Shown in pieces: positions 2,770-11,901 of a stretch of 31,562 nucleotides of DNA. The stretch is from IMG/VR virus record IMGVR_UViG_2645727555_000016, positions 1 to 31,562 of that record. One strand, given 5' to 3'. How positions within the stretch are numbered: position 1 is the stretch's first letter; every line of letters starts with the position of its first letter. This DNA comes from a virus. Lineage: Duplodnaviria; Heunggongvirae; Uroviricota; Caudoviricetes. A program made the translations under genes and the position numbers. The notes below the pieces were generated by a model. That model worked only from the letters and a program-made list of their open reading frames with translations, was not told the DNA's origin and made no database searches.

Positions 2770-5700
2770 TTGGACATGGAACAGTTCAAGAAGAAAAAAT
2801 TACCGCTTCTTATTGCCGGTGCTGGTGGCAAGAAAAGTAAAAGCTCCAGCCGTACCCCGGTTGAAGCTGATGATACTGTCAATTCTCGTGCTATGGCAGC
2901 CATCCTCGACCTTCTTGGCGAGGGGGTTATCGGTGGCCTGGTAAATGGCGCAAAGTCGATCTTCATCGACGATTTACCGATCTTGAATGAAGATGGCTCT
3001 TCCAACTTCAGCGGTATTACATGGGATTTTCGTGACGGCTCACAAGATCAGACGCCAATGGCTGGTTTTGATTTTGTCGAAACGCCTAAGTCCGTAAATA
3101 TTCAGCTTAAAAAAACACACGACGTTACGGTTTCAATCGATAACGATGAAGCTGATCGCGTTCGTGTCATCATGAAATTCCCCTCTTTACGTAGCGTTGA
3201 TAAAAGCTCTGGCGATACAAATGGCACTACGGTGAAGTACAAATTCCAGATCGCCAACGCAGACGCAACATTTTCTGATGTAGTGGCAGAAGGTGAGAAA
3301 AGCGTTGATATCACGCTAACGGCAAAGAAAACCGGCGTGTATTACCGTAGCTATGAGCTGAAACTGCCTAAGCCTGGTCGTGCATACAAGGTTAGGGTGA
3401 TTCGTCTTACAGATGATAATAGTAGCCAGTACCTCTACAACGACACATGGGTTGATTCCATCGGTGAGATTGTCGACACGCCAATGAACTACCCTAACTC
3501 TGCTCTTGTTGGCTTGAAGGTCAATTCAGAGCAGTTTGGTAGCACAATGCCTTCCCGTTCGTATTTGGTGCGCGGTATCAAAATCCGAGTACCGTCAAAC
3601 TACAACGAATACACCAATACTTATGTCGGCGTATGGGACGGTACTTTTAAGCTGTTGTCTTCTTCAAACCCTGCGTGGATTCTCTACGATTTGCTTACCA
3701 ATACTCGGTATGGTCTTGGGCAATTTGTGTCGGAATCCATGATTGACCTCGGCCAGCTCTACCAGATTGGTCGATATTGTGACGAAGAGGTCGATGATGG
3801 CTTTGGGGGTAAAGAGAAACGCTTTGCAATCAATACGCAGATCACCAGTCGACAAGACGCATACCGATTAATTCAGGATATTGCCGGTGCATTCCGCGGC
3901 ATGGTGTTTTGGGCTGGTGGCATGGTTAACATCATGCAGGATAGCCCATCAGATCCGGTAATGATGTTTACCAACTCCAACGTCAAAGATGGACTGTTTA
4001 CCTATAAAGGTTCTGCGCGTAAAGATCGCCCATCCGTTGCGCTCGTAACCTACAACAACAAGGAGGACGGTTATAAGCAAAATATCGAGTACGTTGAAGA
4101 TCAGGACGCAATGCGCCGTTATGGTGAGCGTAAAACAGAAGTCGTAGCATTTGGATGTACAAGCCGAGGCCAGGCTCACCGAGTTGGTTTGTGGCTTTTG
4201 TATACCGCCAGAATGGAGTCGGATGTAATTACATTTACTGCCGGCTTAGACGCCTCATTTCTGATGCCCGGTGAAACCGTTCTGATTCAGAACAAATATC
4301 GTGCAGGTAAACGTAACTCCGGTCGAATTGTGGAGTTTACCAAAAACAGCATCACTCTCGATGCGCCTGTGTCGTTAGCTAAAAGCGGCAGCTTTATTCG
4401 GATATTGAATCAGGAAGGCAAAATCGTTGAACGCGATGTTCTTGAAACTGGCGAAAACATAACAAAGGTTACGTTTTCAAAAGCCCTGTCGTCAGCGGAA
4501 ACGCCTGTTTTGAACGGTGTCTGGACAATTACAGAACCAGATCTCGAACCTATGCGCGTTCGCATCGTTAACATCGCACAGGGGGAAACGCCGGGTAGCT
4601 TTGACATCACCGCTGTTGAGAACAATCCGTCTAAATATGAGGCAATCGACAATGGTGCAACGCTGATCCCGCAGAATACGACGGTATTGGACCCAACTTA
4701 CTCCAAGCCATCTAATCTGCAAATCACTGAAGGGACTTATCTCTCAAGCCCGGGCAACCTGTCAGTAAAACTGACTGCAACATGGGAAGGGAAATCTCCA
4801 GAGTATTGGATCAGTTGGCGACGTTCTGATGAAAACAATGTATCGAACTGGCAATCGGCGCGTGTAACCGAAGAGCAATACGAAATCGTTAATGTCGCGG
4901 AGAATGGACGCTACGACTTCCAGCTGTATGCGGTTTCATTCAACGGTAAAAAAACAGAGATTATCAGTACCGTTTATCAGGTGTTGGGCACAATGACACC
5001 GCCGGATGCCCCAACGTCATTAACGGCCGTTGGAGACTATCGTAATGTGATACTGAATTGGGTTAATCCAGATTCGGTAGACCTTGATCACATTAATGTT
5101 TACGCATCCCAGACCAACAATCTGGATACGGCGAAACTGATCGCAGAGTCTGCAAGCACCACCTTTACACATGCTGGTCTTGGGGATAGCGAAACGTGGT
5201 ATTACTGGGTTCGAGCATCGAACAAGCGAGGTATGTTAAGTCCTCCGAACTCAAACTTGGGTACAGAGGCGACAACTCGCGATGTACTGTCGTTCCTGAC
5301 TGGCAAAATTACATCTTCCGAGCTTGGTCAGGCTCTGCTTGAGGACATCAACAGCAAAGCCTCTCAAGAAGCAGTTGACGAGTTAAATGAGCATATCAAC
5401 CAGAGCGTCGAATCTTTGGAGGGGGCGGTAAACGACGTTAAGGAAGATATAGCTGAATTAGATAAGCAGTTCAGCGATAACCTCGCGGATTTTGAAATAA
5501 AATTCAACGAGCGTAGCGATGCTTTGGAGAACGCACAAACCGAGCTTAAAGGTGAGGTTTCGGCAACGATCGACAAGGTCAATGAAGCGTTTGAAAAAAT
5601 TGATGCTACTGATGCTGCAATTGTTGAAATCGAAAACACCGTATCTGAACACGATAAAGCTCTCGCTAATACAGTCGAGGCAATAAAGGCTGCAAGAGAT

Positions 5701-7500
5701 GAAGCGGCGGCTCTTATTGCTAAGGAAAGCGAGGCTCGTGTTGAAGGCGATGCTGCAAACGCTAAACAACTGGAAGTGTTGCAGTCAACGGTAGAGGAAA
5801 GCTCCGCTGCCGTTGAAGAAATGAAAAAGACGGTTGCAGAGGTCGATCGTGCCAGTGCAGAACTGACTACGAACATTGAGGCGTTAGCCAAAACAAATAT
5901 TGACTTGGCTCTTCGTCAAGATGAAGACCAGCACAAGCAGATGGTCAATAACGCGAAGATCGCAACAACACAGAAAACCTTTGCTGATGATATGTCTGCA
6001 ATGGCCACGAAGGTTGAGGAAATTCGCGTAGAAATTGGCGAAGACATTAAGGCCAGTATTCTGGAAGAGTCCACCGCTCGTGCCGATGGCGATGAAGCGT
6101 TGGCAAAGCGTGTCACTCAGCTGCAATCTAAGTTTGAAGGAGATATCAGCGCGGCGATTAGTACAGAGCAGGAGGCTCGTACATCTGCCGATGAAGCTCT
6201 GACGACACAGATCACTCAGCTTGAGTCGAAAGTAAGCAACGATATCGTCGCAGCTATTAAGGAAGAGCAAGAAGCCCGAGCAACGGAAGATTCGGCTCTG
6301 GCAAGCCAGATCACACAACTTCAGGCAAAGGTTGATGATGATATTTCTGCTGCAATACGTAGTGAGCAGGAGGCCCGAGCAAGCGGGGACTCTGCGTTAG
6401 CCAAACAAATAAACCAGCTTCAGTCAAAGGTTGACGGTGATATATCCGCTGCCATCACTCAGGAGCAGGAGGCCAGAGCAAGTGCTGACCAGGCGCTCTC
6501 ACGAGAAATTAACAGCCTGCGAGCACAAACCGGAACTGATATTGCCGCAGCGGTTGCTGTAGAGACAAAAGCAAGGACTGATGCCGATAGTGCATTGTCT
6601 ACCCAGATTACGTCTCTTACAGCAAAAGCTAATGATCTCGAGGCGTCTCTTGCCAGAGAAACAACGGCTCGTGCAGATGGTGATACCGCTTTAACAAAAG
6701 AGGTTTCAAGTTTAAAAGCACAGACAGCGAAAGATATTAGTGCGGCCGTTGCAGTTGAAACGCAGGCTCGAACTGATGCTGACTCGGCGTTGTCGTCTCA
6801 GATCACCAAGCTGACCTCTCAATACAAAGAGGATATTAAAGCGGCTGTAGCAACCGAAACGAAAACGCGTACAGAGCAAGATGCTGCATTGGCGACTCAA
6901 ATCACAAACTTAGAGTCTCAAACGGCAGCCAACATTTCCGCGGCGGTAACAACTGAAACGACAGCGAGAACGCAGGCAGATAATGCTCTGAGTGGGCGAA
7001 TCGATACTCTGAAAGCAGAGGTGGATGGAAATACCGCGACAATTCAACAGCAGGCAACAGCTATTGCTGATACCAACAAAAAAGTATCAACCGCGTGGAC
7101 GTTGAAAATGGAGACTTCAACGAGCGGAGGGCAGAAGTATGTTGCCGGTATTGCGCTTGGTATTGACACCACTGGGCTATCTCAGTTTTTGGTTCAGGCG
7201 GACAGGTTTGGTTTGGTCAACTCTGTTAACGGGAAGATCACAACGCCATTTGTTATCGAAAACAGTATCGCCTATATGAATGGAGCGTATATCAAGGATG
7301 GCACAATCACCAATGCAAAAGTAGGCGATCTGCAATCTACCAATTTTGTTAGCGGTAGATCTGGATGGCGGTTCGGCAAAAATGGAACGCTTGAGATCAA
7401 CGGTAATAGCGGCGGCAATGGGCGATTGGTTATAAATGGTCAGCGGATTGACGTTTATGACGATAACAACGTCTTACGAGTAAGAATTGGCCGTCTGTGA
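2770..7500 (+). CDS. Central tail fibre / host specificity protein J-like (lambda gpJ-like), enlarged to 1576 aa by an internal coiled-coil repeat array
   Basis: N-terminal region shows gpJ-like conservation (e.g. ...SGITWDFRDGSQDQTPMAGFDF...); large size; position after the I-like gene; fibronectin-III-like segment and C-terminal distal domain. Confidence 0.85.
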   Translation: MDMEQFKKKKLPLLIAGAGGKKSKSSSRTPVEADDTVNSRAMAAILDLLGEGVIGGLVNGAKSIFIDDLPILNEDGSSNFSGITWDFRDGSQDQTPMAGFDFVETPKSVNIQLKKTHDVTVSIDNDEADRVRVIMKFPSLRSVDKSSGDTNGTTVKYKFQIANADATFSDVVAEGEKSVDITLTAKKTGVYYRSYELKLPKPGRAYKVRVIRLTDDNSSQYLYNDTWVDSIGEIVDTPMNYPNSALVGLKVNSEQFGSTMPSRSYLVRGIKIRVPSNYNEYTNTYVGVWDGTFKLLSSSNPAWILYDLLTNTRYGLGQFVSESMIDLGQLYQIGRYCDEEVDDGFGGKEKRFAINTQITSRQDAYRLIQDIAGAFRGMVFWAGGMVNIMQDSPSDPVMMFTNSNVKDGLFTYKGSARKDRPSVALVTYNNKEDGYKQNIEYVEDQDAMRRYGERKTEVVAFGCTSRGQAHRVGLWLLYTARMESDVITFTAGLDASFLMPGETVLIQNKYRAGKRNSGRIVEFTKNSITLDAPVSLAKSGSFIRILNQEGKIVERDVLETGENITKVTFSKALSSAETPVLNGVWTITEPDLEPMRVRIVNIAQGETPGSFDITAVENNPSKYEAIDNGATLIPQNTTVLDPTYSKPSNLQITEGTYLSSPGNLSVKLTATWEGKSPEYWISWRRSDENNVSNWQSARVTEEQYEIVNVAENGRYDFQLYAVSFNGKKTEIISTVYQVLGTMTPPDAPTSLTAVGDYRNVILNWVNPDSVDLDHINVYASQTNNLDTAKLIAESASTTFTHAGLGDSETWYYWVRASNKRGMLSPPNSNLGTEATTRDVLSFLTGKITSSELGQALLEDINSKASQEAVDELNEHINQSVESLEGAVNDVKEDIAELDKQFSDNLADFEIKFNERSDALENAQTELKGEVSATIDKVNEAFEKIDATDAAIVEIENTVSEHDKALANTVEAIKAARDEAAALIAKESEARVEGDAANAKQLEVLQSTVEESSAAVEEMKKTVAEVDRASAELTTNIEALAKTNIDLALRQDEDQHKQMVNNAKIATTQKTFADDMSAMATKVEEIRVEIGEDIKASILEESTARADGDEALAKRVTQLQSKFEGDISAAISTEQEARTSADEALTTQITQLESKVSNDIVAAIKEEQEARATEDSALASQITQLQAKVDDDISAAIRSEQEARASGDSALAKQINQLQSKVDGDISAAITQEQEARASADQALSREINSLRAQTGTDIAAAVAVETKARTDADSALSTQITSLTAKANDLEASLARETTARADGDTALTKEVSSLKAQTAKDISAAVAVETQARTDADSALSSQITKLTSQYKEDIKAAVATETKTRTEQDAALATQITNLESQTAANISAAVTTETTARTQADNALSGRIDTLKAEVDGNTATIQQQATAIADTNKKVSTAWTLKMETSTSGGQKYVAGIALGIDTTGLSQFLVQADRFGLVNSVNGKITTPFVIENSIAYMNGAYIKDGTITNAKVGDLQSTNFVSGRSGWRFGKNGTLEINGNSGGNGRLVINGQRIDVYDDNNVLRVRIGRL
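6070..7020 (+). repeat. In-frame tandem repeat array (about 11 units of roughly 81-84 bp, i.e. 27-28 aa) inside the J-like gene, encoding Ala/Glu/Gln-rich coiled-coil repeats
   Basis: Protein repeats of the form D[IV]SAAI..EQEARASADxAL..QI.QLQSKV seen back to back; antisense ORFs here are repeat artefacts. Confidence 0.7.
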
Positions 7501-7593: not shown

Positions 7594-10500
7594 ATGTGGT
7601 ACAGGGAAGGTACTATCACATTTACACAGGGTAGCAATACTCTGGTTGGGGCAGGGACAGCCTGGAACGTAACAGCTAATGGTGTGTTGCCGGGGATGAT
7701 CGTCATTGGCCCCGACAATAAGCTGTATGAGATCAAGCGCGTAACAAGCGATACGAATATTGTTCTCTCAGAACCTTATACCGGCGAAACTCAGTCTGAG
7801 GTTCCGTGCCGAATCATTACGACCTATGAAGGCGACTTAACACAGTTTAGCGCGCGCTTTACTGCGCTAATGTCGCGTATGTCGGCTGATTCCAAGTCCA
7901 TGCGCAGTTGGTTGACTACGCTGGATGAGGTGACAATCGAGCGTGAAGACGGTACAGAAGTGACCGTTAAGCCGCTGATACAGATTGTCAACGAGCACAA
8001 CGAAAACGTTGAGTGGTATAAAAATAACACCGACGCGATTGACGCTGCTGGCGACAAAGCTCGTGAGGCGGCGGCCAGTGCTGCCGCAGCAGCAGAAAGC
8101 GCCAATACCGCTGGAGAAAAAGCCTCTCAAGCGTCTCAAAGTGCATCCGCTGCAGAGTCCTCAAAAAGCGCGGCGGCCACCAGTGCCGGTGCCGCGAAAA
8201 CGTCTGAAACGAATGCTGCAGCGTCACAAAAATCTGCAGCCACTTCTGCATCCACCGCGACCACGAAGGCGTCAGAAGCTGCCACCTCAGCCCGGGATGC
8301 GGCGGCCTCAAAAGAGGCAGCGAAATCATCAGAAACGAGCGCAGCCTCGAGCGCCAGTAATGCCGCTTCCTCGGCAACGGCGGCAGGAAATTCCGCGAAG
8401 GCGGCAAAAACGTCCGAGACGAACGCCAGGTCTTCTGAAACGGCAGCGGGACAGAGCGCCTCGGCTGCGGCAGGCTCAAAAACAGCGGCTGCGTCGTCTG
8501 CCAGTGCCGCGTCAACAAGTGCCGGGCAGGCCTCAGCCAGTGCCACCGCCGCCGGAAAATCGGCAGAAAGTGCCGCATCGTCTGCTTCAACAGCCACAAC
8601 GAAGGCTGGCCAAGCCACTGAACAGGCCAGCGCAGCAGCGAGGTCTGCTTCCGCAGCGAAGACATCCGAAACGAACGCGAAAGCGTCGGAAACCAGCGCA
8701 GAATCCTCAAAAACGGCTGCCGCATCGTCAGCCAGTTCGGCGTCGTCATCGGCATCATCTGCGTCTGCTTCAAAAGATGAGGCGACCAGACAGGCGTCAG
8801 CAGCGAAGGGTAGCGCCACGACGGCATCCACGAAGGCGACAGAGGCAGCTGGCAGTGCGACGGCAGCAGCTCAGAGCAAAACTGCTGCTGAATCCGCTGC
8901 GACCCGTGCGGAAGCTGCTGCTGATCGTGCTGAAGAGATTGCCGGTGCAGTTGCGATGGAAGACGCAAGCCTTACAACTAAAGGTGTTGTGAAACTTAGC
9001 AGTGCTGTCGATAGCACCAGCGAATCACTGGCTGCAACTCCAAAGGCAGTTAAAGCTGCGAATGACAATGCGAATAGCCGATTGGCGAAGAGTCAGAATG
9101 GCGCTGATATCCCAGACAAGGGCCGCTTCCTGAGTAACATTAATGTTTACAGCAAAGGTGAAGTGGATAAGAAAAAGGGGATGCGAAAATACACTTTCTC
9201 TGCTCCTGCAAATGCAGTAAGCGGTAAGTGGTATCCTGTAGTCTTTCGCCGAACTGGTGGTGGCACAGATGAATTAGCCTCACGAGTGGTTATCACCACT
9301 TATTCCTCAGCTGGCGGATACGCCATGAATAATTGTGAATTTAATGGGTTTGTTATGCCTGGCGGTTGGTCTGATCGCGGTTCATATGCGGCTGGTTTTT
9401 TCTCAATATATTCTACTGCTGAGCGAGCCATACACTCGATTATCGCAAGCGTGAAAGATGATGATTTGTGTAGTGTATTTTACGTTGAGACAAGAGCATT
9501 CCCTATCCAGATTTTTGCTGAGGAAGGATTAAATGTGATTGTTCCAACGGCTGATTATGCAGTTGGTCAAACCACTTATAAGTGGGGGGCAACTGATCCT
9601 TTATCAGAAAGTACGAATGCACAGATAATTTTGGACTTTAAAAATGGACGAGGTTATTACTGTTCACATCCATTTATTTCAAGTCTTTCAGGAAATGCTG
9701 CTACAGCCACGAAATTGCAGACGGCAAGATCTATCGGTGGAGTTGTTTTCGACGGTTCTGCAAATATTAACCTTCCAGGTGTAAACACTACGGGTAATCA
9801 GAACACCACTGGTAATGCTGCAACTGCTACAAAACTTCAGACGGTAAGAAAAATATCCGGTGTTCCATTTGATGGTTCTACTGATATCACTTTAACCGCT
9901 GCGCATGTTGCCGCTTTCGCAAGAAGGGCAACAGGGTCATATGCGGATGCTGATGGTGGCGTGCCGTGGAATGCTGAATCTGGTGCTTACAATGTAAATA
10001 GAACAGGCGACAGTTATATTCTTGCCAACTTTTATACCGGAGTCGGAAGTTGCCGGACCCTGCAGATGAAGGCGCATTACAGAAATGGTGGTCTGTTCTA
10101 CCGTTCTTCAAGAGATGGCTATGGTTTTGAAAGTGGTTGGGAGCAGGTTTACACGACTGGATTTATGCCTCAGCCGGCTGATATAAACGCGCCAACCGCT
10201 GCCGCTGGATGGTTAAATAGTGGTAACGGAACGGCATTTACGACTGCTCAATTTATAACTTGGCTAAATAATCAGGGGGCATTTACAAACAAACATTGGA
10301 TCGCACGGTGCTCATGGACTTACGCCAACAATAATTATATAGACGACACTGGTTGCGGTAGGATCGATCTATCTGGTTCCGTGATTGAGGTGTTTAGTAA
10401 TAAGGCAACAAGCCACTACACTATTCGTGTTACAACGACAACAACATCGGGTCATGGTGGTGTTAACAATGCGGAATTTATTTATGTGTACAATGGAAGT

Positions 10501-11901
10501 GATTATGCACCAGGCTGGCGTCGTTCTTATAACACTAGAAACAAACCAACAGCTTCTGATGTAGGAGCATTACCGCTTTCAGGTGGCACATTATCTGGAG
10601 GGTTAACGTCTTCTGGTGAGATCGTTTCAAAATATGCAAATGGTTTCCGCATTGCCTACGGAAACTACGGATTCTTTATCCGAAACGATGGTTCAAGCAC
10701 ATACTTCATGTTGACCGATTCGGGTAACAGCCTGGGAACCTATAATAGTTTAAGGCCGCTTATCATTAACAATGCCAATGGTGCTGTTAGGATCGGTAAT
10801 GGACTCAATGTTACTGGCGGCATCAATGGTAGCTTGAACGGTAATGCTTCAACAGCTACGAAGTTGCAAACTGCTAGAAACATCAATGGTGTTAAGTTTG
10901 ATGGCTCAGGCGATATCAACATTAATACATTGGTATCTCGTGGCCGAGTTACGGCGTTAAGCGGCTCTACTCAAGGCACTGCTGGCATTCAAATGTACGA
11001 GGCGTACAACAATAACTACCCGACCATGTATGGCAACGTATTGCACATGAAAGGTGCGAGTGCTGCTGGTGAGGGAGAGTTGCTAATTGGCTGGAGTGGT
11101 ACGAGCGGTGCACATGCGCCAGTTTTCATTCGCTCACGAAGAGATACCGCAGGTTCGGCATGGTCAGCGTGGGCGCAGGTATATACCGCTAAGGATTCAA
11201 TCCCTGGTGTGAATACAACCGGTAATCAGAACACTACTGGTAATGCCGCAACCGCCACAAAATTGCAGACAGCAAGGAAAATTGCTGGTGTGGCGTTTGA
11301 TGGCTCTGCCGATATAACTTTGACTGCGGCTAACCTTAATGCTTACACGAAAACAGAGGTAACAAACCTTCTAAGTTCCTATGCAAGCAGATCATCACTG
11401 ACAGGCTATAGTGGCAACCTGGATATTATTGCTGAAACACTGGTTGTCAAATCAGGCGGTAGTGGAGGGTTTGCTATATGGGATATTGGCACAACTACTA
11501 GCGGTGCCAATATGTACATTGATCCAAACCCAGGTATCAATACAGTTTGGCGTTCAACATCTTCAAGGCGCTATAAAAAGGATATTGAAACATTACAAGA
11601 TCGATATGCTGATGAACTTTTGTCATTAAGACCTGTTTGGTATCGTTCAATTTGTCGAGGTGACCGAAAGGATTGGGGGTATTACGGCCTTATTGCTGAA
11701 GAGGTAGGTGAGATTGCCCCGCAATATGTCCATTGGCGTGAACCAACAAATAATGATTCTCCAGAAGATATTTCCTCAAATGGTATGGTCGCTGAAGGGG
11801 TGATGTATGAGCGTTTGGTTGTACCACTCATTCATCATATTCAGCAATTGACCAAAAGGGTTGAGGAGCTTGAAACGAAGTTAAATTCACCTAAAGAATA
11901 A
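7594..11901 (+). CDS. Side tail fibre protein (Stf-like) with Ala/Ser/Thr-rich low-complexity region, four dispersed tail-fibre repeat motifs and a C-terminal intramolecular chaperone (peptidase S74-like) domain
   Basis: 1435-aa ORF; low-complexity SETNAxAS-type repeats (nt about 8040..8950); motif TTKGVVKLSSAVDSTSESLAATPKAVKAAN; four copies of GNAATATKLQTAR.I.GV.FDGS.DI; C-terminal ...DWGYYGLIAEEVGEIAPQYVHW...ERLVVPLIHHIQQLTKRVEELE (about nt 11520..11901) typical of auto-cleaving chaperone domains. Confidence 0.8.
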   Translation: MWYREGTITFTQGSNTLVGAGTAWNVTANGVLPGMIVIGPDNKLYEIKRVTSDTNIVLSEPYTGETQSEVPCRIITTYEGDLTQFSARFTALMSRMSADSKSMRSWLTTLDEVTIEREDGTEVTVKPLIQIVNEHNENVEWYKNNTDAIDAAGDKAREAAASAAAAAESANTAGEKASQASQSASAAESSKSAAATSAGAAKTSETNAAASQKSAATSASTATTKASEAATSARDAAASKEAAKSSETSAASSASNAASSATAAGNSAKAAKTSETNARSSETAAGQSASAAAGSKTAAASSASAASTSAGQASASATAAGKSAESAASSASTATTKAGQATEQASAAARSASAAKTSETNAKASETSAESSKTAAASSASSASSSASSASASKDEATRQASAAKGSATTASTKATEAAGSATAAAQSKTAAESAATRAEAAADRAEEIAGAVAMEDASLTTKGVVKLSSAVDSTSESLAATPKAVKAANDNANSRLAKSQNGADIPDKGRFLSNINVYSKGEVDKKKGMRKYTFSAPANAVSGKWYPVVFRRTGGGTDELASRVVITTYSSAGGYAMNNCEFNGFVMPGGWSDRGSYAAGFFSIYSTAERAIHSIIASVKDDDLCSVFYVETRAFPIQIFAEEGLNVIVPTADYAVGQTTYKWGATDPLSESTNAQIILDFKNGRGYYCSHPFISSLSGNAATATKLQTARSIGGVVFDGSANINLPGVNTTGNQNTTGNAATATKLQTVRKISGVPFDGSTDITLTAAHVAAFARRATGSYADADGGVPWNAESGAYNVNRTGDSYILANFYTGVGSCRTLQMKAHYRNGGLFYRSSRDGYGFESGWEQVYTTGFMPQPADINAPTAAAGWLNSGNGTAFTTAQFITWLNNQGAFTNKHWIARCSWTYANNNYIDDTGCGRIDLSGSVIEVFSNKATSHYTIRVTTTTTSGHGGVNNAEFIYVYNGSDYAPGWRRSYNTRNKPTASDVGALPLSGGTLSGGLTSSGEIVSKYANGFRIAYGNYGFFIRNDGSSTYFMLTDSGNSLGTYNSLRPLIINNANGAVRIGNGLNVTGGINGSLNGNASTATKLQTARNINGVKFDGSGDININTLVSRGRVTALSGSTQGTAGIQMYEAYNNNYPTMYGNVLHMKGASAAGEGELLIGWSGTSGAHAPVFIRSRRDTAGSAWSAWAQVYTAKDSIPGVNTTGNQNTTGNAATATKLQTARKIAGVAFDGSADITLTAANLNAYTKTEVTNLLSSYASRSSLTGYSGNLDIIAETLVVKSGGSGGFAIWDIGTTTSGANMYIDPNPGINTVWRSTSSRRYKKDIETLQDRYADELLSLRPVWYRSICRGDRKDWGYYGLIAEEVGEIAPQYVHWREPTNNDSPEDISSNGMVAEGVMYERLVVPLIHHIQQLTKRVEELETKLNSPKE

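Follow-up and report, generated by a model that had tools for sequence, protein, structure and literature searches.

In this study, we analysed the central tail fibre gene in a stretch of viral DNA of 31,562 nt (the window), which belongs to an SSU5-type E. coli phage-plasmid. The encoded protein carries ten tandem units of 33 residues in the distal part of a long, predicted alpha-helical shaft. On balance, the best explanation is a trimeric helical shaft built of recombining 33-residue units, which is homologous to the shafts of F-type pyocins and phage T1 and probably switches its fold.

The lambda-J-like central tail fibre protein is encoded on the plus strand at 2770..7500, and the ORF list gives it 1576 aa with TTG 2770 as the start, or 1574 aa with ATG 2776. 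Database copies start at ATG 2776 and have 1574 aa. Pfam matches were found to FNIII-A_GpJ (103-237, E = 1.1e-29), Phage-tail_3 (359-522, E = 7.5e-34), fn3 (746-825) and Phage_Tail_Tip (1424-1558). The PHROG name was 'central tail fiber J' (PHROG 31), and the PDB sequence matches were the F2-pyocin fibre, T1 gp33 and lambda J. Upstream of the gene, Phage_min_tail, Phage_tail_L and NlpC/P60+JAB proteins are followed by a 196-aa ORF, which had no Pfam match and sits where relatives have an annotated tail assembly protein I. These genes were assigned as M, L, K and I homologues, the 196-aa ORF by position. The original prediction of a J-like protein was thus confirmed by its Pfam domains, its PHROG name and its upstream neighbours. 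Since the NCBIfam lambda_TipJ model scored 526.7 bits, below its curated cut-off of 1950, the protein is classed as a homologue of lambda J and not as an equivalog.

The conserved hub body with the FNIII domains (aa 1-825; 2770..5244, plus strand) aligned with lambda J 3-837 and F2-pyocin fibre 9-843. Identity in the hub body was 88-99% among the non-Klebsiella SSU5-group relatives compared and 84-85% in two Klebsiella homologues. The distal Phage_Tail_Tip (DUF1983) domain (aa 1424-1558; 7039..7443, plus strand; Pfam E = 1.5e-41) aligned with lambda J residues 839-971 and F2-pyocin fibre residues about 1060-1193, and it was 92-100% identical across E. coli, Salmonella SSU5 and Citrobacter relatives. 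The alignment identifies this domain as a homologue of the lambda J beta-prism central straight fibre. Lambda J aligned over aa 22-862 (E = 2.6e-127) through lambda residue 837, and the alignment picked up again at lambda residue 839, which corresponds to aa 1419. Judged from this break, the whole predicted helical shaft is, compared with lambda J, an insertion that follows the FNIII domains and precedes the Phage_Tail_Tip domain, in agreement with the insertion first proposed between a conserved body and a distal domain.

The array occupies aa 1092-1420 (6043..7029, plus strand), as defined by a unit table, a unit HMM and periodicity statistics. Units 1 to 10 start at 6043, 6142, 6241, 6340, 6439, 6538, 6634, 6733, 6832 and 6931; unit 6 has 32 aa and the remaining units 33 aa, giving 329 residues. 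An in-frame tandem repeat with a period of 27-28 aa had been predicted for the 1576-aa ORF. The repeat exists, with a period of 33 aa (99 nt) instead: residue identity at lag 33 was 0.49 compared with 0.10 +/- 0.017 in 2000 shuffles (z = 22.7), and lags 27 and 28 gave background values of 0.05 and 0.10. Each array unit scored 45-60 bits with the unit HMM, and seven columns were invariant (A4, E9, R13, D17, A19, L20 and L27). The consensus string originally given was right at 31 of the 33 unit positions. Its count of about 11 units has to be replaced by 10 clear units and one weak match at aa 981-1009 (14 bits). Likewise, the extent first assigned to the array, 5280-7100, corresponds to the whole helical shaft, and about the first 760 nt of it lack 33-aa periodicity. 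A degenerate last partial unit, NTATIQQQATAIADTNKK, follows the array at aa 1421-1436 (7030..7077, plus strand).

At the DNA level, the units were 39-65% identical to each other (mean 52%). Tandem Repeats Finder, proposed earlier as a check, reported no array at period 99 over the window because the units are too diverged. The 99-nt periodicity itself was significant, with an identity of 0.533 compared with 0.291 +/- 0.015 for codon shuffles (z = 16). With units this diverged, the array is not a VNTR-like, slippage-prone DNA tandem repeat. None of the catalogued families searched (Pfam, NCBIfam and others) covers the shaft, and the 33-residue repeat is present in thousands of fibre proteins without a Pfam or NCBIfam model. 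A word-indexed search of proteins, made with a profile of two units, matched only six short fragments, which were uninformative.

The number of units was then compared among relatives. Across SSU5-group relatives the number ranges from 4 to 10, and the 10 of the window are the largest number seen in the group. Alleles with 4, 5, 6, 7, 8 and 10 core units occur among proteins with near-identical hub and tip. The J protein has 5 core units in SSU5 (gp20), 6 in pMT1 of Yersinia pestis and 4 in a Salmonella enterica SSU5-like plasmid, and distant fibres have up to 26 units. When the window gene was aligned with locus L001 (GCA_043573985.2), a single in-register gap of 198 nt (two units) appeared at 6216..6413 (plus strand), a natural deletion polymorphism, with 99.2-100% identity in the flanks from 4570 to the gene end. 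The deletion junction lies in the short homology CAGCTTnAGTCnAA, which is common to units 2 and 4, and protein P0003 has a fused unit 2/4. These sequence comparisons support recombination and length variation of the array, and the original prediction that copy number differs among relatives held for whole units. Unit number differs between closed phage genomes and plasmids, so that assembly errors are an unlikely origin of the length variants. The 40 best plasmid matches (at least 98.9% identical) had no whole-unit length change, spanning 4729-4734 nt barring one IS insertion, which indicates that the array is not hypermutable. In six relatives, side-fibre length and unit number did not go together (for example, PhiR41_1 has 9 units and a side fibre of 597 aa, SSU5 has 5 units and 1260 aa, and the window has 10 units and 1435 aa), and a functional correlate of copy number was not found there. 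The earlier suggestion that copy number tunes length is kept here as a hypothesis.

The helical state of the shaft was modelled using AF2 runs on monomers with a shallow alignment or none. In the model of aa 1289-1576, built from a 7-sequence alignment, aa 1290-1436 formed a continuous helix with a block-mean pLDDT of about 86-96. The helix stopped at model residue 148 (aa 1436), and the distal domain in the same run had low confidence (pLDDT about 30-65). From about aa 864 onward, the single-sequence model of aa 826-1300 was mostly helix. It was briefly interrupted at three places (aa 990-994, 1094-1097 and 1203-1207), which we regard as monomer fold-back artefacts and not as real kinks. The shaft is rich in Ala, Glu, Gln and Leu, and its Pro, Gly and aromatic content was 3-4% compared with about 21% elsewhere. 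AF2 thus predicts a helix for the monomer, which would presumably assemble as a trimeric coiled coil.

The hydrophobic periodicity of the array differed from that of a canonical heptad. Hydrophobic power was 108 at 3.65 residues (33/9, or 3.67; hendecad-like) compared with 3.2 at 3.5 residues. A second strong peak was found at 2.07 residues (33/16), a beta-like alternation, and the non-periodic shaft upstream peaked at 3.55. Nine core positions in each 33-residue unit (2, 6, 9, 13, 16/17, 20, 24, 27 and 31) make up three hendecads, so that gain or loss of a whole unit leaves the helical core in register. Of the coiled coil originally predicted, the helical state agrees with the models, and the array has a hendecad-like period in place of the heptad.

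About 230 aa of non-periodic helix precede the array. In this proximal part of the shaft (aa 864-1091; 5359..6042, plus strand), assigned from the single-sequence AF2 model, no 33-aa periodicity was found. Motif pairs at R949/F964 and R981/F996, with the same 15-residue spacing between reverse (R) and forward (F) copies as in the array, and the weak HMM match suggest two cryptic degenerate units at aa about 946-1010 (5605..5799, plus strand). The start-to-start distance from the cryptic element to the first full unit was 109-114 aa in the SSU5-group relatives compared, Klebsiella excepted. Three overlapping ORFs on the minus strand (5364..5891, 5458..5769 and 5884..6318) were taken from a mechanical ORF list, rejected as genes and judged spurious. 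Such ORFs had been attributed to the repeats. They do exist, but they fall mostly in the non-periodic helix, mainly outside the array. The density of TTA/CTA/TCA was 29-35 per kb in the Ala/Glu/Asp/Thr-rich shaft coding sequence compared with 41-45 per kb elsewhere in the gene, and the longest antisense open stretches overlap low density in the Ala/Glu-rich shaft. These results indicate that composition, and not repetition itself, keeps the antisense frames open.

A recent preprint linked the pattern SxSxxMxxLxS to a switch from coiled coil to beta-sheet prism that drives membrane puncture (PMC12874032). Using the motif as defined in the text of this one preprint (He et al. 2026), we found 26 perfect matches compared with 4.8 +/- 2.2 in shuffles (maximum 13 in 2000). 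In each of the 10 units, the reverse motif is perfect at positions 4-14 and the forward motif at positions 19-29. The two copies are 15 residues apart, with Asp/Gly/Ser/Asn-rich turns between them, and both the F2-pyocin fibre (R1034/F1049) and T1 gp33 have the same spacing. Across 1268 units of 150 diverse representatives, for which the values are inflated because the units were picked by an HMM built from the window array, the E9-R13-D17 triad, invariant in the window, was conserved at 98%, 98% and 90%, and positions 4, 12, 14, 19, 21 and 29 had 95-100% small residues. These six positions lie outside the nine-position helical core. He et al. described the S positions as being exposed in the coil form and, in the beta-prism, buried at its corners, and the triad fits the Glu/Asp-Arg i+/-4 salt bridges that they described (PMC12874032). 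The main text of He et al., whose study includes 24 phages, mentions neither SSU5 nor 'repeat' (PMC12874032).

Homology to known shafts was also found. The shaft and tip aligned with the F2-pyocin fibre 25vf_A (residues 882-1193 to aa 1241-1548, E = 7e-25), the pyocin comparison being made with the F2 and not the F7 fibre, and with T1 gp33 (E = 1e-30). The unit profile alone, against the whole PDB, retrieved T1 gp33 (E = 1.3e-7), the F2-pyocin fibre 25vf (E = 1.2e-4) and one other J-type fibre. At the level of these alignments, the shaft is homologous to the central-fibre shafts of F-type pyocin and phage T1. The protein shares with the fold-switching class a long helix, predicted here by AF2, between the FNIII and distal beta-prism domains, the alternating motif, Asp/Glu-Arg pairing and homology to the pyocin shaft.

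From the alternating motif in each unit and the homology to the pyocin and T1 shafts, we infer that the shaft may be metastable and switch its fold; both the switch and any functional effect of unit number are putative. In a trimeric alpha-helical shaft of about 570 residues, the array would make up the distal half, the periodic one, and the shaft would set the hub and FNIII domains apart from the distal Phage_Tail_Tip domain. In-register unequal recombination between units would shift their number and give the natural alleles of 4 to 10 units. Engagement of the receptor would then trigger refolding of each unit from nine helical turns (about 5 nm) to one beta-hairpin (about 1 nm) within a trimeric beta-prism for which the distal domain would act as the seed. 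This correspondence of one unit to nine turns or one hairpin is our own putative mapping from the motif. With this refolding, the fibre would become shorter, the tip would open and the tape-measure protein would be released, as He et al. reported for the F7 pyocin (PMC12874032). More tentatively, the 33-residue unit may be the quantum of a fold-switching spring, with unit number (4 to 10 in natural alleles, up to 26 in distant fibres) setting stroke length and stored energy of the device by which a non-contractile tail penetrates the membrane; the shaft, not the conserved tip, would then be the rapidly evolving, host-adapting part of the fibre in SSU5-type phage-plasmids.

It is possible, although we do not favour it, that the shaft is a static spacer. 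A stable trimeric coiled-coil stalk would set the distance from the tip to the receptor end, and unit number would tune reach through O-antigen or capsule without a fold switch. The high-confidence helix prediction, whole-unit indels that keep the core periodicity and the natural variation in copy number are all consistent with this. Reach through surface polysaccharide is also plausible because core LPS is the reported specificity of SSU5 (Kim et al. 2014, cited in PMC12090712). However, a static stalk leaves unexplained why residues at six positions off the helical core are almost without exception small, why forward and reverse motifs alternate with turn-like linkers, and why the 2.07-residue alternation is strong. 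The homologous pyocin shaft is, moreover, reported by He et al. to switch (PMC12874032).

The side tail fibre (1435 aa; 7594..11901, plus strand) is encoded directly downstream of the J gene and has PHROG tail-fibre family matches and Gp34_trimer and Peptidase_S74 domains. The pyocin counterpart of its N-terminal domain binds the central-fibre shaft (PMC13455828; PMC12874032), and by analogy the side fibre may dock on the shaft here. The proximal shaft, aa 864-1091, is the candidate docking region and the most divergent segment among relatives, with 57-63% identity in most SSU5-group relatives whose hub and tip were 88-100% identical. The shaft might thus be mainly a diversifying module, whose internal homology promotes swapping of shaft variants and matching side-fibre docking sites between phage-plasmids, with unit number as a by-product. 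As the main account, we regard this as rather doubtful. The divergence of the shaft, the mosaic J gene of L001 and a side-fibre N-terminal domain with 99% identity alongside an identical shaft and 77-86% alongside a divergent one argue for it, and so does the likeness of that domain to the pyocin side-fibre shaft-docking domain. This PDB match is weak (E = 0.0065), however, overall relatedness confounds the modest co-variation with the side fibre, and units with 39-65% DNA identity are a poor substrate for homologous recombination. Diversification of the shaft is compatible with a recombining, fold-switching shaft and does not exclude it.

The strong 2.07-residue alternation and the beta-prism strand motif also speak for an array that the virion holds from the outset as a beta-prism or beta-helix, as in lambda J's central straight fibre, and not as a coiled coil; according to He et al., AF3 gives a beta-prism for 30% of related fibres (PMC12874032). 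We consider a native beta structure very unlikely, since AF2 gave one continuous high-confidence helix and the composition is poor in Gly, Pro and aromatic residues. The homologous segment of the F2 and F7 pyocin fibres is also an alpha-helical coiled coil in the resolved pre-ejection state (PMC12874032; PMC13455828; 10.64898/2026.02.24.707460). A periodicity due to low-complexity composition alone, with which the blank Tandem Repeats Finder result would agree, is already refuted and has practically no probability left, given the periodicity at lags 33 and 99 beyond shuffles, the seven invariant columns and the whole-unit indels in relatives.

The energy source by which non-contractile tails breach the outer membrane is an open question. 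So far, the sole experimental answer is the coiled-coil-to-beta-prism switch of one pyocin in the 2026 preprint (PMC12874032). If a fold-switching shaft is also the case for the window, the switching region would be modular and made of a 33-residue repeat. The natural series of 4-10 units with near-identical hub and tip would then be a ready-made test of the effect of shaft length on reach, stroke and infectivity. The entry machinery of SSU5-type phage-plasmids is of practical interest, since these elements, which can bear resistance genes, are often found in clinical E. coli, Salmonella, Yersinia pestis (pMT1) and Klebsiella.

Among known systems, the central fibre protein of F-type pyocins (F7 CFP; F2 PA0641/PyoF10; PDB 25vf) is built in the order of the window protein: hub, FNIII domains, trimeric alpha-helical shaft, distal beta-prism. 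It shares with the window protein the 15-residue spacing of motif pairs and the Arg-Asp/Glu salt-bridge pattern, and in both the side-fibre gene lies downstream of the central fibre gene. The fold switch has been demonstrated for the F7 pyocin only (PMC12874032). The pyocin shaft has about 163-178 residues, whereas that of the window has about 570, of which 329 form the regular array. The F2-pyocin shaft is described as mainly heptad with a stutter (10.64898/2026.02.24.707460) and not as a tandem repeat, so that its geometry is not identical to that of the hendecad-like array. In addition, the window has no PyoF11/F12-type small genes between the J and side-fibre genes, unlike F-type pyocin.

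Phage T1 gp33 (PDB 9l9p), a lambda-like tip protein, has near-exact 33-residue repeats of the window family in its C-terminal third, with the forward motif at 931, 964 and 997, but only about 3-4 units compared with 10 in the window. According to PMC11945409, residues 821-1172 of gp33 were not resolved by cryo-EM, and an AlphaFold3 model gives an alpha/beta fibre of about 37 nm. Lambda gpJ (tip attachment protein J; PDB 8iyk, 8xcj) shares the homologous hub, FNIII and central-straight-fibre (Phage_Tail_Tip) domains and the M-L-K-I-J gene order. It lacks the helical shaft, the window protein having about 556 extra residues between lambda residues 837 and 839, and it has a LamB-binding C-terminal domain that is absent from the window protein. 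YadA/BadA trimeric autotransporter adhesins and streptococcal M proteins also have elongated, repeat-built coiled-coil stalks with non-heptad periodicities, and their repeat number differs between strains and alters stalk length. These stalks are unrelated to the window shaft in sequence, are cellular and not viral, and have no proposed alpha-to-beta refolding. Further known systems are the orthologues SSU5 gp20, pMT1 J and the J of the Salmonella enterica SSU5-like plasmid, which belong to the same phage-plasmid group and share both the 33-residue unit and the conserved degenerate unit upstream of the array.

The J-like ORF (2770..7500 (+), 1576 aa) shares 95-99.6% DNA identity with Escherichia phages Cyrano and CMS-2020a, in which the match is annotated as 'host specificity protein J' or 'phage tail protein', and it is matched equally well by more than 100 E. 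coli plasmids of ~110 kb, including pECOH89. Remoter matches were found in Klebsiella, Yersinia, Enterobacter and Salmonella phage SSU5. These matches argue that the window derives from an SSU5-type phage-plasmid. Homologues of lambda M, L and K and then an ORF in the I position lie 5' of the J gene, and the gene of a 1435-aa side tail fibre lies 3' of it. The mechanical ORF start is the TTG at 2770 (2770-2778); since the database proteins of the cluster have 1574 aa, ATG 2776 is implied as the annotated start. In one E. coli plasmid (NZ_CP035843.1, 51616-58305; match H76), an IS100/IS21-family element was found inside the J gene, and this phage-plasmid is probably adsorption-defective.

Pfam assigned FNIII-A_GpJ, Phage-tail_3 and fn3 to aa 103-825 and Phage_Tail_Tip (DUF1983) to aa 1424-1558. 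No Pfam domain was found in the shaft between aa 825 and 1424, and no NCBIfam model covers it. Lambda J residues 3-837 align to aa 22-862 and residues 839-971 to aa 1419-1548, so that the whole ~556-residue segment appears as a single-point insertion relative to lambda. The original prediction of a J-like protein with an insertion between a conserved body and a distal domain is supported by the Pfam domains, by this alignment, interrupted at one point, and by the upstream M, L and K homologues.

The tandem repeat proposed for the shaft is real, and its period and extent needed correction. Identity at lags 27 and 28 was at background, and the true period is 33 aa rather than 27-28 aa. Autocorrelation maxima were found at lags of 33, 66 and 99 aa in the protein and 99, 198 and 297 nt in the DNA, and lag-33 identity within the array was 0.49 vs 0.10 ± 0.017 for shuffles (z = 22.7). 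The in-frame units number ten, not about 11. They tile aa 1092-1420 (nt 6043-7029 (+)), unit 6 being one residue short, with A4, E9, R13, D17, A19, L20 and L27 invariant. Tandem Repeats Finder reported no array in the window because DNA identity between units is only 39-65%; the 99-nt DNA periodicity greatly exceeded that of codon-shuffled controls (z = 16). Within the span originally assigned to the array, 5280-7100, the first 760 nt encode a helix-like part without periodicity (aa ~837-1091), in which a single weak unit occurs along with two cryptic pairs of motifs. Antisense open frames ascribed to the repeats do exist, mostly over this non-periodic part, as a composition effect, since TTA, CTA and TCA are scarce in the Ala/Glu/Asp/Thr-rich shaft coding sequence.

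AF2 predicted one helix (block-mean pLDDT ~86-96) through the last four units and 16 residues beyond them, and a single-sequence run predicted helix from ~aa 864 onward. Pro, Gly and aromatic residues account for 3-4% of the shaft vs ~21% of the flanking domains. These models and the composition support the helical nature of the shaft, which would span roughly 85 nm if ~570 residues were continuously helical (0.15 nm per residue). Fourier analysis of array hydropathy gave peaks at 3.65 (33/9) and 2.07 (33/16) and no heptad signal (power at 3.5 = 3.2); the shaft part upstream of the array peaked at 3.55. Column reading placed the hydrophobic or salt-bridge core at positions 2, 6, 9, 13, 16/17, 20, 24, 27 and 31. 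Nine core positions per 33 residues make three hendecads, a register that insertion or deletion of whole units keeps, and this accounts for the tolerance of such changes.

Copy-number variation among relatives was confirmed by whole-unit differences in homologues and closed genomes. When the unit HMM was run over 120 homologues, protein length followed unit number, with 4 core units in 1353 aa, 5 in 1385/1386 aa, 6 in 1425/1426 aa, 7 in 1465 aa, 8 in 1498 and 1509 aa, and 10 in 1574-1576 aa. The highest count observed in the SSU5 group was ten. Among closed genomes, an SSU5-like plasmid of Salmonella enterica has 4 core units, SSU5 and Citrobacter 5, Y. pestis pMT1 6, PhiR41_1 9 and CMS-2020a (SCU-175) 10. 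The homologue P0003 equals the window protein except for fused units 2 and 4. Its locus, L001 (GCA_043573985.2), has a sole 198-nt gap at 6216-6413, with flanks 99.2-100% identical to the window from 4570 to the end of the gene, and the deletion junction lies within short CAGCTTnAGTCnAA homology. The homologues P0120 and P0031 differ by exactly one unit. The best 40 plasmid matches (at least 98.9% identity) showed no whole-unit length difference and, one IS insertion aside, spanned 4729-4734 nt. Because length is constant among them, unit gain or loss is occasional, and the array is not hypermutable.

The J gene of L001 is also mosaic. Its initial ~900 nt (L001 1501-2400 vs window 2770-3669) are 82-84% identical, the following 900 nt 94-97% and the remainder 99-100%, and this stepped identity indicates recombination within the hub-coding part. 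Relative to the window, the non-Klebsiella SSU5-group proteins compared have 88-100% identity in hub plus FNIII and 92-100% in the distal tip, except that the tip has 66% in the plasmid proteins of Y. pestis and Salmonella. The non-periodic shaft (5359-6042) has merely 57-63% identity in most non-Klebsiella relatives (P0026, P0031, L002, L004 and L005 were compared). In most of these proteins it is the shaft of J that varies most, rather than the tip. A divergent shaft with a conserved tip reverses the usual pattern of a variable tip. In SSU5-like plasmids of Klebsiella pneumoniae, J has 4056 aa (L010 200-12370 (-), NZ_CP152333.1 39099-51269), 85% identity in the hub, roughly 2500 extra residues and only two recognisable 33-aa units.

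At its N-terminus, the side tail fibre (7594-11901 (+)) has a domain that is conserved to 99% alongside an identical shaft and to 77-86% alongside a divergent one. This domain (window 7594-7910 (+)) weakly resembles one that in pyocins docks on the central-fibre shaft (PMC13455828; PMC12874032). Docking of side fibres on the proximal shaft would be compatible with these observations, which are far from proof of it. The side fibre also carries a Gp34_trimer domain (959-1058), a C-terminal Peptidase_S74 intramolecular chaperone (1323-1379) and an Ala/Ser/Thr-rich low-complexity stretch (aa ~150-400, about 8040-8800) that accounts for the overlapping open frames 7985..8992 (+), 7988..8968 (-) and 8136..8831 (-).

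An array-plus-tip query against a representative library of 1.84 billion proteins matched 3299. In the best 150 of these (P0127-P0276), arrays reach 26 units and proteins 2850 aa, and the commonest unit period is 32 residues (589 spacings), then 33 (102), 36 (82) and 39 (33). Neither Pfam nor NCBIfam has a model for the 33-residue repeat. The tail tip protein of the N4-like podovirus Pseudomonas phage DEV (PDB 9ze4) has three units of this repeat family at residues 157-247 and, in addition, the conserved C-terminal ~60 residues, so that the module is not confined to siphophage J proteins.

PDB sequence matches were obtained to phage T1 gp33 (E = 1e-30) and, via shaft and tip, to the F2-pyocin central fibre (E = 7e-25). 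The 33-residue profile alone, against the whole PDB, found only these two and one further J-type fibre. The trimeric coiled-coil shaft of the pyocin fibre is where side fibres dock (PMC12874032; PMC13455828; 10.64898/2026.02.24.707460; all 2026). In the F7 pyocin, cell binding is reported to convert the 163-residue shaft to an antiparallel beta-prism, which opens the tip and ejects the tape measure (He et al., PMC12874032). A SxSxxMxxLxS pattern is reported to run in the strand direction of the prism; in the coil its small S residues are exposed, at the prism corners they are buried, and Asp/Glu at M positions form pairs with Arg at i+/-4 (He et al., PMC12874032).

We found this pattern twice in each of the 10 units, perfect and reversed at positions 4-14, perfect and forward at 19-29; perfect matches numbered 26 vs 4.8 ± 2.2 in shuffles. 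The linkers (15-18; 30-33 plus 1-3) are enriched in Asp, Gly, Ser and Asn. None of the S positions (4, 12, 14, 19, 21 and 29) falls within the nine-position helical core. In 1268 units of 150 diverse proteins, selected by an array-derived HMM, these positions are 95-100% small, and E9 (98%), R13 (98%) and D17 (90%) are conserved. We infer that one unit may become one beta-hairpin after switching; ten units would then pass from a ~49 nm helix to a ~10 nm prism. Sequence signatures and homology make this fold-switch reading plausible and, on balance, slightly favoured. The preprint of He et al. nowhere describes the shaft region as a repeat, and the literature examined seems not to describe a modular unit of 33 residues, its hendecad register or the natural series of 4-10 units. 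The reverse-to-forward spacing of 15 residues is the same in the F2-pyocin fibre, T1 gp33 and the array. The array is best regarded as an unusually regular, expanded form of the F-type pyocin central-fibre shaft.
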